A program made the position numbers and the translations under genes. Of a stretch of DNA of 64,000 bases, positions 10,226 through 61,016 are shown piece after piece. Origin of the DNA: Candidatus Iainarchaeum sp. (GTDB taxonomy: Archaea; B1Sed10-29; WALL01; JAGHAM01); NCBI GenBank assembly GCA_021161465.1, contig JAGHAM010000012.1, positions 180 through 64,179 of the forward strand, written 5' to 3'. Within the stretch, counting starts at the first letter, position 1, and every line of letters starts with the position of its first letter. A model generated the notes under the pieces. The model saw only the letters and a list, made by a program, of their open reading frames with translations. It had not been told where the DNA came from and ran no database searches.

Positions 10226-11184
10226 ATATGGCAGGGAAAACAGCTCATGTTGCAAAGTGGAAGAAGAAGGAAATAGAAGAGCTTGAAGGCTTCCTAAAAA
10301 AATACCCAGTAGTTGGTGTAGCGAGCATCCAAAACTTCCCCACGAAGCATTTCCAGGAAGTGAGAAAGGCGTTGGAAGGGAAAGCAGTAATACGTGTAAC
10401 TAAACTAAAACTGTTTAACATAGCCTTGGATAAGGTGCCTGAGTTAAAGGTAATAAAGGATTACGTAAACGGGCCGTCTGCTTTTATATTCACTGATATG
10501 GACCCATTCAAACTCTTTAAAGCATTAAGAGAAAACTCATCAAAAACTTTCGCTAAGCCCGGGCAGGTAGCACCGGAGGATATAGTCGTGCCCGCTGGCG
10601 ATACAGGAATACCTCCTGGACCAGCACTGGGCGACCTAAGGAGTGCAGGTATCGAGGCAAGGATAGACGGCAGCTCAATAAAAGTCACCAAGGATTCTGT
10701 CGTCGTCAAAAAGGGCGATGTGATAACACCAGAGGCTGCTGCTGCTTTAAGCAAGCTTGGATTGAAACCCTTTGAAGTTAAGTTATCCTTAGAGGCTGCT
10801 TACCAGAATGGGATTGTATTTACTGCAGATGTGCTTGGAATAAAAACCGAGGAAATAGTTGCTTCCATGCAAAGGGCTTACCAAAGTGCATTCAACTTAA
10901 CGTTTAACGTGAAATATTTCACAAAAGCTAATGTGGAGTTGTTCCTGTCAAAAGCATTCAATAATGCCAAGGCTCTTGGTGTTGAGGCAATGATACTGGA
11001 TAGGGGGATAGTTGAGGATATAATCGCAAGAGCGTCTGGTCAGGCGAAGGTGCTGTCCTCATATGTGAAAGAATCAAAAGTAGAGTCCAACCCTAGCGAA
11101 GCAAAGGCAGATGAGAAGGCGGACCAGGCAGAGGCTAGCGAGGAAGCAAGTGAGGGATCCAAGGACTCTAATGATGCTCAATAA
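10222..11184 (+). CDS. rplP0: ribosomal stalk protein P0 (uL10)
   Basis: AHVAKWKKKEIEELEGFLKKYPVVGVASIQNFP N-terminus typical of archaeal P0. Acidic tail, but no terminal LF(G) peptide. Confidence 0.9.
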   Translation: MNMAGKTAHVAKWKKKEIEELEGFLKKYPVVGVASIQNFPTKHFQEVRKALEGKAVIRVTKLKLFNIALDKVPELKVIKDYVNGPSAFIFTDMDPFKLFKALRENSSKTFAKPGQVAPEDIVVPAGDTGIPPGPALGDLRSAGIEARIDGSSIKVTKDSVVVKKGDVITPEAAAALSKLGLKPFEVKLSLEAAYQNGIVFTADVLGIKTEEIVASMQRAYQSAFNLTFNVKYFTKANVELFLSKAFNNAKALGVEAMILDRGIVEDIIARASGQAKVLSSYVKESKVESNPSEAKADEKADQAEASEEASEGSKDSNDAQ

Positions 11185-12902: not shown

Positions 12903-13022
12903 CACATTTCAGAACTGGTGGGAGCGAGTTGAGTTGTGCCAAATCGCGCTCCTGCTATAACTATTTTTGCGGATTTATGGTTCGTGGATAGCTATTAATA
13001 GGTTATCTTTTTATATAACATT

Positions 13023-13496
13023 TTGCAAAATTGTTATATGCAGGATAAGTGGTATTATTTTGTGGCAGGGGTTCTGGTTACAGCTGGGTTTCTTGCTGTG
13101 GTAGAAAACTTGAACCCAAGTGAGGGAATATTTACCAATCTGCCAACATCTGGTTTTGTGGTTAAAAGGTCGCTGATGGAAGACCTTTCTAATGCCAGAG
13201 AGGTAAACATGAGCCTCTTAGGGTATGACTCTCCATTTGATGGTGTTCATAACCTCCCAGAAGCTGTTGTATACAATGGTGTGAGTTACAGGCCGGTCAT
13301 TGTTAGTTATAATGAGTTGAAGGACCGTTCCAGCGAGCTTAAAATACATTATCTGTTGTCTATAGGAGAAGCGCCTGATGGTAAGTTTCCCGTTTATTGG
13401 GTGGAGTTTGATGGGGTTTCGGAGAAAATGCCCATTCTGGATGGAATAGTTGTTTTGAACCAATCTTTTAGTTCTGGGTCTGAGCCGTTTGATTAG
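13023..13496 (+). CDS. hypothetical membrane-anchored protein
   Basis: ORF with one N-terminal TM helix (WYYFVAGVLVTAGFLAVV). No recognisable motif. The 3' end overlaps the smc 3' end. Confidence 0.3.
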   Translation: MQNCYMQDKWYYFVAGVLVTAGFLAVVENLNPSEGIFTNLPTSGFVVKRSLMEDLSNAREVNMSLLGYDSPFDGVHNLPEAVVYNGVSYRPVIVSYNELKDRSSELKIHYLLSIGEAPDGKFPVYWVEFDGVSEKMPILDGIVVLNQSFSSGSEPFD

Positions 13497-57433: not shown

Positions 57434-58047
57434 TGGAGCTTGTAAGCGTTGCTGTTGATGGCGAAGACGACATACTCAAAAAGGCAGTGGAAACCTTAAA
57501 CATAGGCAAAGTTATAGTTTACCCAACTGATACTGTTTATGGTGTTGGAGCGGATGCAACCAGTGAGAAAGCCGTTGGACAGGTTTTTGAACTTAAGGGC
57601 AAGCCCAGTGGCGAGCCAATAAGCGTATTGGTCTCCGATTTCGCTATGCTTGAGGAATATGCGCGCCTGGACACCAAACAGCTGGATTTGGCACGTGAGT
57701 TGCTACCAGGCAGGGTTACTGTGGTTCTTGATGCCAAAGGCCTTGCTAAGAACCTTTCCATGGATGGCTCAATAGGATTCCGGATTCCAGTGAGCCCCTT
57801 TTGCATAAGTTTGGTTGAGGAGTTTGGAAAGCCAATCACAACCACAAGCGCGAACCCTTCAGGCAAGAGCCCCGCCTCTTCTATTGAGGTAGCAGTAAGG
57901 TACTTCGGCGACAGGGTAGCACTCTACATAGACTATGGAGAGCAGCTTTTCTCGCCCTCGACCGTGGTTGACCTGCGTGAAAAACCAAAAATACTGCGCG
58001 AAGGCTCTGATATCGGCAGGGTAAAACAGGTCTTAGGTTCACTCTAG
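57430..58047 (+). CDS. tsaC: L-threonylcarbamoyladenylate synthase (YrdC/Sua5 domain only)
   Basis: VIVYPTDTVYGVGADATSEKAV, GKPSGEPISVLV, TTTSANPSGK blocks. ATG overlaps the upstream stop (ATGATG). Confidence 0.85.
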   Translation: MMELVSVAVDGEDDILKKAVETLNIGKVIVYPTDTVYGVGADATSEKAVGQVFELKGKPSGEPISVLVSDFAMLEEYARLDTKQLDLARELLPGRVTVVLDAKGLAKNLSMDGSIGFRIPVSPFCISLVEEFGKPITTTSANPSGKSPASSIEVAVRYFGDRVALYIDYGEQLFSPSTVVDLREKPKILREGSDIGRVKQVLGSL

Positions 58048-59259
58048 AAACCACTCGTGTGCTGGTTTAATTGTTATACCTTCTATTTCTGCTCTCGCGG
58101 ACCTAGAGAGAAGCACTCCAGAGCCAGCCCCAAACTTTTTCATAAATACTCTCAACGGTTTTAGGTCTTTCTTTGAGATTTCCTTCTTAAACTTGACTTC
58201 CACAGGTAGGGGTTTTTCTTCTTTTATCACAAAGTCAACCTCCTTGCCTGTTGATGTTCTCCAAAAAAATTTAATTCTAGGGTCAAGTGCAACTGAGTTT
58301 TCAACATTTTTTGGAATACTCTGCGTGGTCCCAAGTAATGAGAAACAGGGGGCCGCAGGATATGCTTTTTTCAACTTCCTTTCAGATGCTATGAAACTCC
58401 CTGAGTAATTGTATACCTTCTTTATCATATTGGAGTAAGACAGATACCGTACATATCTTTCAACAGTTCGTTCGTTTAGAGAGAAGCTTTTAGCTATGCT
58501 CTTGTATTCCAGAAGCATTCCCGGGTTCTCTACTATTGCCATAAATATCGTTCTGAGCTTTTCGGGGTTGTCTATTGCAAATAATGTTGGTATATCTCCA
58601 AGAATCACCTTATTAACTATACTTTCTAGGTACAGGCGGCTGAATTCATCATCTTCATTGACTATCTCTATGAAATTTCTCTTAAGGTAGTAAAGGAATT
58701 CAGATTCCAATTCTGAAGGGAACATTTTTGGATTTTTGGTCAAGTGCTCTTTATCTCTAAACTCAAGGAATTCCTTGAAAGATAATATTGGAAGCTCAAG
58801 TGTTATTATCCTACCAGCTAGTGATTCCTTTGATTCCCTTATAAACAGTGATTGGGAACCAGAAACCACAAATTTTAGGTTAGGGTATGTATCATAGTAT
58901 ATCTTTATCTGGGTTGCCCATTCTCTGAGTTTTTGGATTTCGTCAAGGAATAGATAAACTCTATCCTTTCCCAGGTCTACACCTGTTGTTCCTAAGTATT
59001 CTGTGATTACTTCTTCAAGACTATTCACGGATTCGTCGAATGTGAAGTACAGTACGTTCCTCCTTGGGACTCCTTTGTCAATTAGGTGGTCCATGAGTTG
59101 CTGCATGAGGACTGTTTTTCCAGTTCTCCTCAAACCAACAATCCCAACTATAGGCCGTTTTTCAAGAAATTTGACAAGTCTCTGGAATAATACTCTTTTC
59201 TTTTCATATCCATATTTGAATCCTGGTTTCCAGTGCTTATTTATGATGTCAAGTTTCAT
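58039..59259 (-). CDS. COG1373-type AAA+ ATPase (second copy in the window)
   Basis: P-loop GLRRTGKTV, Walker B YLFLDEIQ, C-terminal EVDFVIKEEKPLPVEVKF block. AT-rich. Its 3' end overlaps tsaC by 9 nt. Confidence 0.75.
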   Translation of the reverse strand: MKLDIINKHWKPGFKYGYEKKRVLFQRLVKFLEKRPIVGIVGLRRTGKTVLMQQLMDHLIDKGVPRRNVLYFTFDESVNSLEEVITEYLGTTGVDLGKDRVYLFLDEIQKLREWATQIKIYYDTYPNLKFVVSGSQSLFIRESKESLAGRIITLELPILSFKEFLEFRDKEHLTKNPKMFPSELESEFLYYLKRNFIEIVNEDDEFSRLYLESIVNKVILGDIPTLFAIDNPEKLRTIFMAIVENPGMLLEYKSIAKSFSLNERTVERYVRYLSYSNMIKKVYNYSGSFIASERKLKKAYPAAPCFSLLGTTQSIPKNVENSVALDPRIKFFWRTSTGKEVDFVIKEEKPLPVEVKFKKEISKKDLKPLRVFMKKFGAGSGVLLSRSARAEIEGITIKPAHEWFLE

Positions 59260-59458
59260 GAATCTTATGTGTTCTTTCTTATTTTTAAATTTAACTACAC
59301 TACAATGTCATTATTACCATAAAATAATGATATTATGTTATCATTAGTACAGAATTCAACCCCCCATATTCGTTATGAGGGTTCCCAACTTTTAGTTTAG
59401 GCACGAAAACTCAAAAATTTTCCTTCGGAACCTTGCACTAAATTTTTGCCCTTCGGGA

Positions 59459-59549
59459 ATATAACAGCGATTAAGAGGTTTCGCTCGGTTGCACCTTGCT
59501 CCACCCCAATCCTGCTATGCAGGACTTCGTTAAATCGCAAACGTTAAAT
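59459..59549 (+). repeat. attC-like folded repeat 1
   Basis: 5' ATATAAC ... 3' GTTAAAT. Inner arms GCGATT-AA-GA / TC-TT-AATCGC with single-nt bulges. Central hairpin TCCTGC-TAT-GCAGGA. Confidence 0.5.
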
Positions 59550-59608
59550 GAAATAAATTTTCAAAAATTAATGATACTTTTATTAACCTTCACTGCTAAT
59601 TTGTGATT

Positions 59609-59965
59609 ATGAAACCACAAATTAAAGCAATTTATATTGCAGTTCAGGATATGGATAGAGCGGTAAAATTCTATGAAGACATTTTTGATGTCAAAGTTTC
59701 TTCAAAAGATGAAAGAATGAGTTCATTTGAGTTTGAGAACATTACCTTCCTTCTTTATAATCCTAAAATTGATAATGAGACAATTTCCAGTGGCAATAAT
59801 GTTGTTCCAAATATCCAAGTTCAAGATATTAATAAAATGTTGGAATTAATTAAAAGTAAAAATTGTGAAATTGTCTTGCCATTGGAAAAGATTGGGAAAT
59901 ATCATCTTTTTCAAGCAAAAGATACGGAAGGTAATGTTATAGAATTTTACCAGATTCTAGAATAA
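59609..59965 (+). CDS. VOC (glyoxalase/bleomycin-resistance/dioxygenase) family protein
   Basis: IKAIYIAVQDMDRAVKFYEDIFDVKV start and ..FQAKDTEGNVIEFYQ end typical of VOC proteins. Very AT-rich. Confidence 0.6.
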   Translation: MKPQIKAIYIAVQDMDRAVKFYEDIFDVKVSSKDERMSSFEFENITFLLYNPKIDNETISSGNNVVPNIQVQDINKMLELIKSKNCEIVLPLEKIGKYHLFQAKDTEGNVIEFYQILE

Positions 59966-60130
59966 TTTTTGAAAATTTACTCTGTGACTATAAGGTTAAA
60001 TGGTTTCCTTTCGGAAGAATTGTTGGAAGTTGTGAAGGGATGTACTTTGTAACATTTTGGGGTCAAATACTTCCATGAATTATTGGCGGCGGAACTCTTC
60101 GCCTGCTCTCGCAGACTTGCCCTTCGGGTC

Positions 60131-60215
60131 TGCTAACAGGCGGATATGTAGCTCGCTTACGCTCGCCCAAATTTACCCTAATGGGCAAACTTCACATATC
60201 CCCAAAACGTTAAGC
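60131..60215 (+). repeat. attC-like folded repeat 2
   Basis: 5' TGCTAAC ... 3' GTTAAGC. Inner arms GG(C)GGATATGT / ACATATCCCC with a bulged C. Shares the TCGCT.ACGCTC.GCCCAAATT core with repeat 3. Confidence 0.55.
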
Positions 60216-60269
60216 AACATACTACTCTGCGATTTTGCTGAGAAATAGATTTAAAGGATGGGATAGAAT

Positions 60270-60647
60270 ATGAATATGATGAATAAAGCAGCGATTAAAG
60301 AATTTTTGAAACCAGATTGGAAAAAGATCGTTTTAACTGTATTTCTATTATGGCTTCCTTTTTGTGAGGAGCAAATACCTTTTGGAGGTCATCCAACTTT
60401 AGTCTGGTATCGTGTCGTTGATAGACTCTTCGGGTTTTTAGCAAAACCTTTATGTTCTATGTTTTATCCCACTGATACTTATTGTTATTTATACTCCGCA
60501 GGACCTATTCAAATTTTCCAATCACAAATCCCACAATATCACTTATTATTACTCCTAACCTTAATTGTAGTTGAAATTATTAGTGTTTATTTATTCACCT
60601 GCTTAATAATCTTCACTTATGACAAATTCAGAGCTAAAAAACAATAA
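60270..60647 (+). CDS. hypothetical integral membrane protein
   Basis: 125-aa AT-rich ORF with 3 predicted TM segments. No recognisable family. Confidence 0.4.
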   Translation: MNMMNKAAIKEFLKPDWKKIVLTVFLLWLPFCEEQIPFGGHPTLVWYRVVDRLFGFLAKPLCSMFYPTDTYCYLYSAGPIQIFQSQIPQYHLLLLLTLIVVEIISVYLFTCLIIFTYDKFRAKKQ

Positions 60648-60674
60648 TCGCAAAATCGCCTGCGTCATACGATC

Positions 60675-60787
60675 GTCTAACAGCGGATAAAAGGCTTCGC
60701 TACGCTCCGCCCAAATTGCCTTCCTGTCTGCCGTGCTGGGCACGGCACAGGCAGGCGGCAACTTCTTTTATCCCCAAAACGTTATAC
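60675..60787 (+). repeat. attC-like folded repeat 3
   Basis: 5' GTCTAAC (fits RYYYAAC) ... 3' GTTATAC. Inner arms G(C)GGATAAAAG / CTTTTATCCC with the same bulged C. Long GC-rich central hairpin. Confidence 0.55.
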
Positions 60788-61016
60788 CAACTATAAGTTA
60801 ACAGAACCAAGATACCATAGATTTTTATATCTTAAGGGTCAAAGATAAAAAATGGGATTTGTTCTTATGGGTAATGACGTAGGCTTCGATGTGTTTCCTA
60901 CTTCTTGTTGTTAGAGTTTTTTATGCACATTTAAACGAGTTTTTGAGGTCTTAGTATGAAAGAGGTGAAATTTATGGATAAAAACTTAAGGGGCGATTAT
61001 CGGTGCCCTTGGCGTA

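Follow-up and report, generated by a model that had tools for sequence, protein, structure and literature searches.

Integrons are defined by an integrase, IntI, that carries an extra domain, together with canonical attC sites, and surveys of Bacteria and Archaea have sought those two hallmarks. A canonical attC reads TAAC-AAxTC-GxTxCAxCxGAC, with spacers of about 5–6 nt and two extrahelical bases. The I2 helix of IntI has been described as the step from double-strand to single-strand recombination (Escudero et al.; PMC7790495), and the insertion was reported to be 'not fully conserved' in a subgroup of integron-like recombinases (Smyshlyaev et al.; PMC8138268). Archaeal integrons and clusters of attC sites lacking integron integrases (CALINs), some of them in Thermoplasmatota, were published in 2022, with the canonical site and integrase (Ghaly et al., 2022; PMC9668308). 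Here we analyze a locus in a 64,000-nt stretch of DNA, in the following called the window, from Candidatus Iainarchaeum sp. (contig JAGHAM010000012.1, positions 180 to 64,179 of the forward strand), in which three folded elements between tsaC and cysK bound two small gene cassettes. A preliminary description, made from the sequence alone, had taken these elements for integron-type attC sites and had spoken of archaeal integrons as only recently reported; their publication, Thermoplasmatota CALINs included, already dates from 2022. We conclude, with a probability of roughly 80%, that the locus is a short two-cassette array without a recombinase, bounded by folded sites that are used like integron attC sites and are built differently. 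The family to which these sites belong is an integron-like system of a distinct variant.

The elements were scored with a covariance model (R1) trained on members of the family, with element 3 of the window left out of training. R1 matched the three elements with 57.6–74.5 bits (Table 1), and the best other score anywhere in the window was 14.6 bits, so that three related elements do lie where they had been described. Even element 1, the most divergent of the three copies, is matched with E = 3e-12, and element 2 is of a type nearly identical to elements from a Thermoplasmata genome that are introduced below. All three window elements carry the inverse core pair TAAC/GTTA at their two ends, and the outer heptamers (R'' and R'), the inner stems, and an unpaired spacer that is short on the 5' side and longer on the 3' side are present as previously quoted. 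One detail had to be revised: elements 2 and 3 each have one mismatched or bulged base because their L' reads CCCC, and the 'same bulged C' that had been regarded as a conserved extrahelical base is, when compared with the family consensus GCGG.../...CCGC, a mismatch or bulge specific to a subtype. Folding of the bottom strand, a check suggested earlier, gave a better result than that of the top strand in all three cases (z = −1.5, −2.7, and −4.5 for elements 1, 2, and 3, versus −1.4, −1.4, and −2.8 for the top strand), with −26.9 kcal/mol for the bottom strand of element 3. The lengths of the two units were measured from G to G of the GTTA cores; the earlier value of 666 bp stands, and that of 573 bp becomes 572 bp.

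In the family consensus, the top strand reads TC-xxx-TAAC-A-GCGGATAAAAG-(hairpin 1)-CCCAAAT-(hairpin 2) in its 5' part and, after hairpin 2, ACTT-CTTTTATCCGC-AAAAC-GTTA-xxx-GAAAT in its 3' part. An outer R stem pairs TC-xxx-TAAC with GTTA-xxx-GA, an asymmetric spacer of 1 nt versus 5 nt separates it from a fully paired L stem of 11 bp, and above the L stem there is a junction of two small hairpins with the conserved unpaired segments CCCAAAT and ACTTC. Stem pairing and covariation were counted after 45 diverse copies had been aligned with MAFFT. Pairing in the L stem amounts to 93%, both partners have changed in 6 of its 11 pairs, and both hairpins covary as well; the covariation score is 0.304 versus 0.112 in shuffled alignments (none of 500 reached 0.304), and slid partners do not exceed 0.121, which supports the fold. 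The consensus folds with −25.3 kcal/mol as bottom strand (z = −9.4) and with −20.8 kcal/mol as top strand (z = −6.5), and in the bottom strand an invariant A/C juxtaposition turns into a G·T pair, so that TTTT alone is bulged out where the R stem meets the L stem. Many family copies have an additional small conserved hairpin, TTGCCCTTCGGG(TC), right before R'' and 10–30 nt upstream of TAAC, which is also found at window elements 1 and 2 (59447–59458 and 60118–60129). A member of much simpler build occurs on a 2.4-Mb hot-spring contig (L126, 12953–13008): it is a near-perfect palindrome, TCCGCTAAC-AGCGGCTATACGCC...GGCGCATAGCCGCT-GTTAGCGGA, without the asymmetric spacer or the junction hairpins, and it scores 23 bits on either strand; not every member of the family thus has the bulge and the two hairpins.

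A strict pattern scan of species-representative genomes gave one real match, a Thermoplasmata metagenome-assembled genome (MAG; L005), in which three elements on one strand separate kinase-like, radical-SAM, and membrane-protein genes; the bacterial matches of the first genome-collection pattern (L002–L004) were judged to be due to chance. A looser scan of metagenome contigs gave at least 120 loci, and the family counts given here and below cover these listed loci, some of which may be redundant. R1 detected 215 elements in the 120 loci, of which 64 contain 2–5 copies, and among the matches listed all copies lie on one strand in 63 of the 64 multi-copy loci. Further copies thus do exist in the element family and form same-strand arrays. 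The 94 units between adjacent elements have a median length of 991 bp, more than half of them (58) contain a single open reading frame (ORF), and nearly all ORFs (123 of 126) are co-oriented with the elements. The cargo is extremely diverse, with 664 ORFs forming few clusters. Of the 215 elements, 181 have TAAC and 197 have GTTA. WOR-3 and Thermodesulfobacteriota are among the bacterial carriers, and a scan of viral contigs identified one 53.6-kb IMG/VR contig (L134) with an element at 10595–10685 (73.8 bits), while a BLAST search with the consensus element against cultured plasmid and phage collections gave no match. In open-access papers and preprints, we found no description of the site family or of cassette arrays tied to a recombinase without I2, and the element family is apparently undescribed so far.

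The position of the cassette junctions could be derived from 94 adjacent element pairs by comparing the 4 nt upstream of TAAC of element n with the 4 nt after GTTA of other elements. In 52% of the pairs, R'' of element n is perfectly complementary to R' of the previous element (mean of 3.09 matches out of 4), versus 8% for its own R' (mean 1.97), 6% for R' of the next element (mean 1.94), and 7% for random pairs (mean 1.91). Contiguous complementarity peaks at 9–10 nt with the previous element and at 4 nt, which is the invariant core only, with the own R'. Where the core is GTTG, the next element has CAAC, which places the exchange point 5' of the fourth base; variants of the first base (ATTA, or AAT for AAC) are few and uncompensated, and the crossover can be placed only 5' of the fourth base. 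Judged by these comparisons, the complementarity to the previous element is the signature of integron cassettes, with a predicted crossover inside GTT, and each cassette consequently carries variable, self-complementary ends, which in the circular form combine into a single R stem. That pairing is conserved while the sequence varies further indicates a recognition that is structure-specific and does not depend on a fixed duplex binding site.

Two lines of comparison locate the junction at the predicted place. First, the WOR-3 MAGs L131 and L132 have flanks that are 99.4–99.9% identical, and their sole difference is a stretch of 808 versus 924 bp with different ORFs between the GTTA of an attI-like site (see below) and the GTTA of the first element; the starts of the two cassettes, GTTAGGCGA.. 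and GTTAGGCGTA.., each match their own R'' (TCGCCTAAC versus TACGCCTAAC). The strain comparison that the preliminary description had suggested, run here on relatives, thus revealed genomes that differ by one cassette exactly at the GTTA junctions. Second, the homology between cassette 1 of the window and an Aenigmarchaeota MAG contig (L138) begins at 59544, where the first T in the GTTA of element 1 lies, and the left junction of this cassette is therefore independently supported. The idea of folded, structure-conserved sites that delimit cassettes with a junction at G|TT is upheld by the covariation in the family, the complementarity of the flanks, and this homology start.

A single cluster of recombinase proteins is physically linked to the arrays in 9 of the 120 listed loci (E = 1e-48 against IntI1 in the local ORF set, with a query 100% identical to the real IntI1), and its gene in most cases precedes the array and shares its strand. 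In five sampled contexts (L126, L127, L131, L132, and L133, namely the 2.4-Mb hot-spring contig, a Micrarchaeota MAG, the two WOR-3 MAGs, and a Thermodesulfobacteriota MAG), elements follow downstream of a recombinase homolog on the same strand; a sixth contig ends before it becomes informative. Homologs with 60–74% identity occur in Stahlbacteria, Nitrospirota, Acidobacteriota, WOR-3, Thermodesulfobacteriota, and Micrarchaeota. Three of four array-linked recombinases reach 238–248 bits with the NCBIfam model NF040815 (XerA_Arch, 'site-specific tyrosine recombinase/integron integrase'; cut-off 220), and the fourth reaches 209 bits. The integron integrase model TIGR02249 gives 196–224 bits, which is below its cut-off of 265, and the match is split into two stretches. 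In the alignment with VchIntIA (IntI4, 2A3V), the linked recombinase has 25 residues where VchIntIA has 67, and the IntI-specific domain with the I2 helix, which in IntI lies near patch III, is thus absent. Over its full length, the recombinase can be aligned with the XerA structures 4A8E and 5HXY, and a structure prediction of moderate confidence (pLDDT 72.5) contains only a loop between the helices 234–247 and 265–278; a fold search with this moderate-quality model gave XerA and IntI4 as nearest matches, without separating which of the two is closer. At its C-terminus, the recombinase has an IntI-like ...SPLD tail, and at its N-terminus there is an extra extension of about 70 residues that matches no Pfam or NCBIfam family. 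After the recombinase stop codon, nine related loci share an attI-like site that consists of a hairpin, (G/A)AAC(A/G)A, and GTTA-xxx-GAAAT, and it is this site that forms the left junction of the cassette swap in the two WOR-3 MAGs. One further locus (L009, 6955–7215) contains a recombinase homolog divergent from the array, with tRNA-like sequences behind it, which may represent a different, tRNA-targeting paralog and not the array enzyme.

Taken together, a pathway can be proposed in which the site, when single-stranded, would fold into the R stem, the asymmetric loop, the L stem, and the two-hairpin junction. A XerA/IntI-like recombinase without the I2 domain, which in related loci is encoded at the array head and whose gene the attI-like site follows, would exchange strands inside GTT and thereby excise the cassette as a circle, in which the cassette's own TTA-xxx-GA start would be joined to its own TC-xxx-TAAC end, and the excised circle could then reinsert at another site. 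We infer that the linked recombinase catalyzes this exchange; the substrate would be single-stranded DNA, and the bottom strand would be the strand used.

The family resembles integrons in four respects, which are the arrays, the G|TT junction, the cassette replacement between strains, and the recombinase with an attI-like site at the array head, and it departs from integrons in both of the features that define them. Like attC sites, the elements are imperfect palindromes of about 60–120 nt that open with ...TAAC on the 5' side and close with GTTA... on the 3' side, the inner stems are variable in sequence and remain complementary, the apex is variable, and the bottom strand folds better. Like integron cassettes, the units are arranged on the same strand, contain mostly single co-oriented ORFs, and have their junction inside GTT, with the bases past it belonging to the next cassette; the cargo of defense, toxin–antitoxin, and miscellaneous genes is likewise familiar from integrons. 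In contrast to attC sites, which have spacers of about 5 versus 6 nt, the family has 1 versus 5 nt, an R stem of up to 9–10 bp, a perfect L stem without conserved extrahelical bases, and a two-hairpin junction at the apex, and its site sequence is highly conserved across phyla and both domains. The recombinase linked to the family also differs from integron integrases, as it lacks the IntI-specific domain, is usually encoded in the same orientation as the cassettes, and has the N-terminal extension. A comparison with the ends of IS200/IS605 elements and with repetitive extragenic palindromic (REP) sequences and REPtrons is instructive insofar as there, too, a folded DNA structure and not a fixed duplex sequence is apparently recognized; however, no HUH/Y1 transposase is linked to our family, the linked enzyme is a tyrosine recombinase, the sites form ordered arrays that delimit unrelated genes, and a fixed GTT core contains the exchange point.

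The absence of the I2 helix raises the question of whether a Xer-type enzyme recombines these sites as double strands, similar to the pdif modules of Acinetobacter or to integrative mobile elements exploiting Xer (IMEX), with the hairpin potential being incidental. The linked recombinase indeed behaves like XerA or XerC/XerD in length and domain order, exceeds the XerA cut-off in most cases, has its best structural matches in XerA, and lacks the helix that is credited with single-strand specificity. We nevertheless regard this explanation as very unlikely. The outer R arms vary between cassettes and stay complementary within a cassette over 9–10 nt, and the covariation of the L stem and both hairpins argues for selection on intrastrand pairing and not on a fixed protein-binding sequence. 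Moreover, the two flanks of GTTA lack the inverted-repeat relation expected of the arms of a double-stranded core site, and the sites are folded direct repeats of about 85 nt, unlike the 28-bp double-stranded dif-like sites, which alternate in inverted orientation in pdif modules. The enzyme itself is also unusual for a Xer recombinase, as its gene lies beside cassette arrays, its tail is IntI-like, and its homologs in unrelated bacterial and archaeal phyla are far more similar to each other than expected for a housekeeping Xer protein.

That the locus is an ordinary CALIN, with true attC sites that serve a canonical I2-bearing IntI encoded elsewhere in the genome or provided in trans, we consider very unlikely. 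Such an array would account for the TAAC...GTTA frame, the G|TT junction, the co-oriented single-ORF cassettes, and the better folding of the bottom strand; the geometry fits as well, with three sites 572–666 bp apart and no recombinase in 64 kb, and Archaea, Thermoplasmatota among them, are known to carry canonical attC arrays (PMC9668308). We compared the elements with a surrogate attC covariance model (R2) built from eight attCs experimentally validated as IntI1 substrates (Data S9 and S10, PMC9668308); the direct comparison with the sites of Ghaly et al. covers nine tested attCs of their 539 (PMC9668308). In a control with two plasmids, five independent class-1 attCs were the top five matches of R2, with 48.9 to 16.7 bits. 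In contrast, R2 gave no match at E ≤ 10 to any of the three window elements, and the family elements on L005, L131, and L126 likewise escaped it. As the spacer is 1 versus 5 nt, the perfect 11-bp L stem has no counterpart of the two conserved extrahelical bases, and every recombinase found beside the arrays lacks the IntI insertion, the earlier assignment to canonical attC sites of a canonical integron is not supported. Finally, REP-like repeats, miniature inverted-repeat transposable elements (MITEs), transcription terminators, or a structured RNA unrelated to gene mobility are extremely unlikely, since GC-richer hairpins of strong secondary structure 20–170 nt past stop codons in AT-rich DNA might suggest them, but the copies in the window are confined to this single locus and are not scattered in the REP-like manner that the preliminary description had named as contrary evidence, the arrays are one-stranded, the complementarity to the previous end and the junction-exact cassette swap are unexpected of terminators or MITEs, there is no top-strand G:U enrichment among the non-Watson–Crick cells (84 G:T versus 129 A:C, counts that are not independent), and Rfam gave no match.

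Several observations weigh against our interpretation of the locus as an array of such integron-like sites. In the window, the flanks of R'' match those of the previous R' at only 1 of 4 positions in both cases, and pairing with the own R' is 6 of 7; the window array itself thus does not show the exchange signature of the family. No tyrosine recombinase was found in the 64-kb window, neither by phmmer with ORFs of at least 90 residues nor by tblastn, in agreement with what the preliminary description had said of the stretch between tsaC and cysK, and there is no attI-like site in the window. The homologs of the cassette 1 gene on Woesearchaeota (L135), Magasanikbacteria (L137), and Aenigmarchaeota (L138) contigs have no flanking matches to R1 or R2, and without R1-type flanks this comparison gives no support for the 3' boundary of cassette 1. 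The excess of A:C over G:T cells argues against a sense-strand RNA structure and leans only mildly towards folding of the bottom DNA strand, and short MAG contigs may be mislabeled taxonomically. The recombinase-less two-cassette array in the window is probably stranded and partly scrambled, because there is no recombinase in 64 kb, the complementarity of the ends is lost, a non-homologous segment of 148 nt (59983–60130) lies between the stop codon of the first cassette gene and element 2, with no counterpart on L135 or L138, and an inverted half-site (Table 1) is found within this non-homologous 3' part of cassette 1. The half-site may have been left behind by an inverted site or by a rearrangement.

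Table 1. Positions of the elements, cassettes, and accompanying features in the window and, for the TATA-like motif, on two related contigs.
Feature	Sequence	Coordinates	Strand	Details
Element 1	Window	59457..59552	+	TAAC 59462–59465; R'' ..ATATAAC; L stem GCGATT/AATCGC; R' GTTA 59543–59546; R1 57.6 bits
Element 2	Window	60129..60218	+	TAAC 60134–60137; L stem GGATATGT/ACATATCC; GTTA 60209–60212; R1 64.5 bits
Element 3	Window	60673..60790	+	TAAC 60678–60681; L stem GGATAAAAG/CTTTTATCC; long second hairpin; GTTA 60781–60784; R1 74.5 bits
Cassette 1	Window	59544..60209	+	666 bp, from TT of the element 1 GTTA to G of the element 2 GTTA; VOC/glyoxalase-family ORF
Cassette 2	Window	60210..60781	+	572 bp; ORF of a predicted membrane protein of 125 residues, 60270–60647
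Inverted half-site	Window	60047..60070	−	TTTGACCCCAAAATGTTACA; inverted repeat; CCAAAATGTTA at one mismatch; resembles the L'-spacer-R' end of element 3
TATA-like motif region	Window	59570–59610
TATA-like motif region	L138	230–270
TATA-like motif region	L135	6395–6435
AAA_14 + DUF4143 ATPase gene	Window	58039–59259	−	between tsaC and element 1

Both window cassettes contain one ORF on the + strand, as described before. The ORF of cassette 1 (59603/59609–59965) belongs to the Glyoxalase/VOC family (PF00903, E = 3e-10), and for that of cassette 2 neither Pfam nor NCBIfam gave a family. When the cassette 2 membrane protein was looked up by exact sequence, the only other record was a 932-bp metagenome contig (L001) that is identical to the window. 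The VOC cassette has relatives in very different lineages: 59544–59982 is 83% identical at the DNA level to the Aenigmarchaeota contig L138, the Woesearchaeota contig L135 shares 59558–59981 with 89% identity, and the Magasanikbacteria contig L137, from a candidate phyla radiation (CPR) bacterium, has a counterpart of the ORF with 77% identity. The encoded protein and Woesearchaeota proteins share about 90% identity, compared with at most 61% between the housekeeping DRG-type GTPase of the host contig and its relatives, which indicates horizontal transfer of the VOC cassette. On L138, the cassette adjoins a divergent fragment of a family-type integrase/recombinase that ends with ...SPLDDL (...YTHAADSKLKNIQSPLDDL). 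The site before this cassette (L138, 196–216) is a minimal ACTTAAC-AGGC-ATTAAGT, an R''/R' pair with a 4-nt loop and without an L stem. The cassettes had been described as promoterless, which is doubtful in the case of the VOC gene: a TATA-like TTTTATTAA, TTT(T)ATTAA, lies about 25–30 nt upstream of its start and is conserved in all three archaeal cassette copies, that of the window and those of two other archaea (Table 1). With this conserved motif, the VOC gene may be transcribed from an archaeal promoter within the cassette itself, as a leaderless mRNA.

It is an evenly balanced question for us whether the family constitutes a second lineage of integron-type gene capture, which would use folded sites without an I2 helix, would have its own site architecture of a bulged R/L hairpin beneath a two-hairpin junction, and would be shared between Archaea and Bacteria at high identity. 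The carriers in such a lineage would be DPANN archaea, Thermoplasmata, and the archaeon of the window on one side and WOR-3, Thermodesulfobacteriota, Nitrospirota, and other bacteria on the other, and we see equal grounds for and against a movement of cassettes across the domains that standard finders have missed. If this applies, hairpin-based cassette capture is not bound to the I2 helix, and a large uncounted pool of mobile cassettes exists in uncultivated Archaea and Bacteria. The family would then also provide substrates and enzymes for studying how single-strand recombination originated from Xer-type recombination, and the VOC gene, with its DNA identities of 83–89% in other archaeal phyla and 77% in a CPR bacterium versus at most 61% for the GTPase, would document a route of gene flow between the domains.

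The position of the array on an archaeal contig, between tsaC and cysK, was confirmed, as the contig's DRG-type GTPase has only archaeal named relatives, the closest being 61% identical. Besides TsaC and CysK, the window encodes a pyrophosphatase, the alpha subunit of an ADP-forming acetyl-CoA synthetase, pyruvate phosphate dikinase (PPDK), and an aCPSF1-like nuclease. An Rfam search of the whole window at gathering thresholds gave no family (no tRNA and no rRNA), and at permissive E-values, applied to the locus only, a single snoRNA match was obtained and judged to be due to chance. The ATPase gene on the left side of the array looks foreign, with a G+C content of about 35% versus 44–45% for the contig, and an exact-sequence lookup of its product gave no record; it could be ruled out as an inverted cassette, as its stop codon overlaps the end of tsaC by 9 nt and there is no site on its left. 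Far from the locus, at 13010–13042, the window contains an AT-rich near-perfect palindrome, GCATATAACA..AAAATGTTATAT, that obtains weak scores with both covariance models (14.6 and 15.7 bits) and is probably a chance match.

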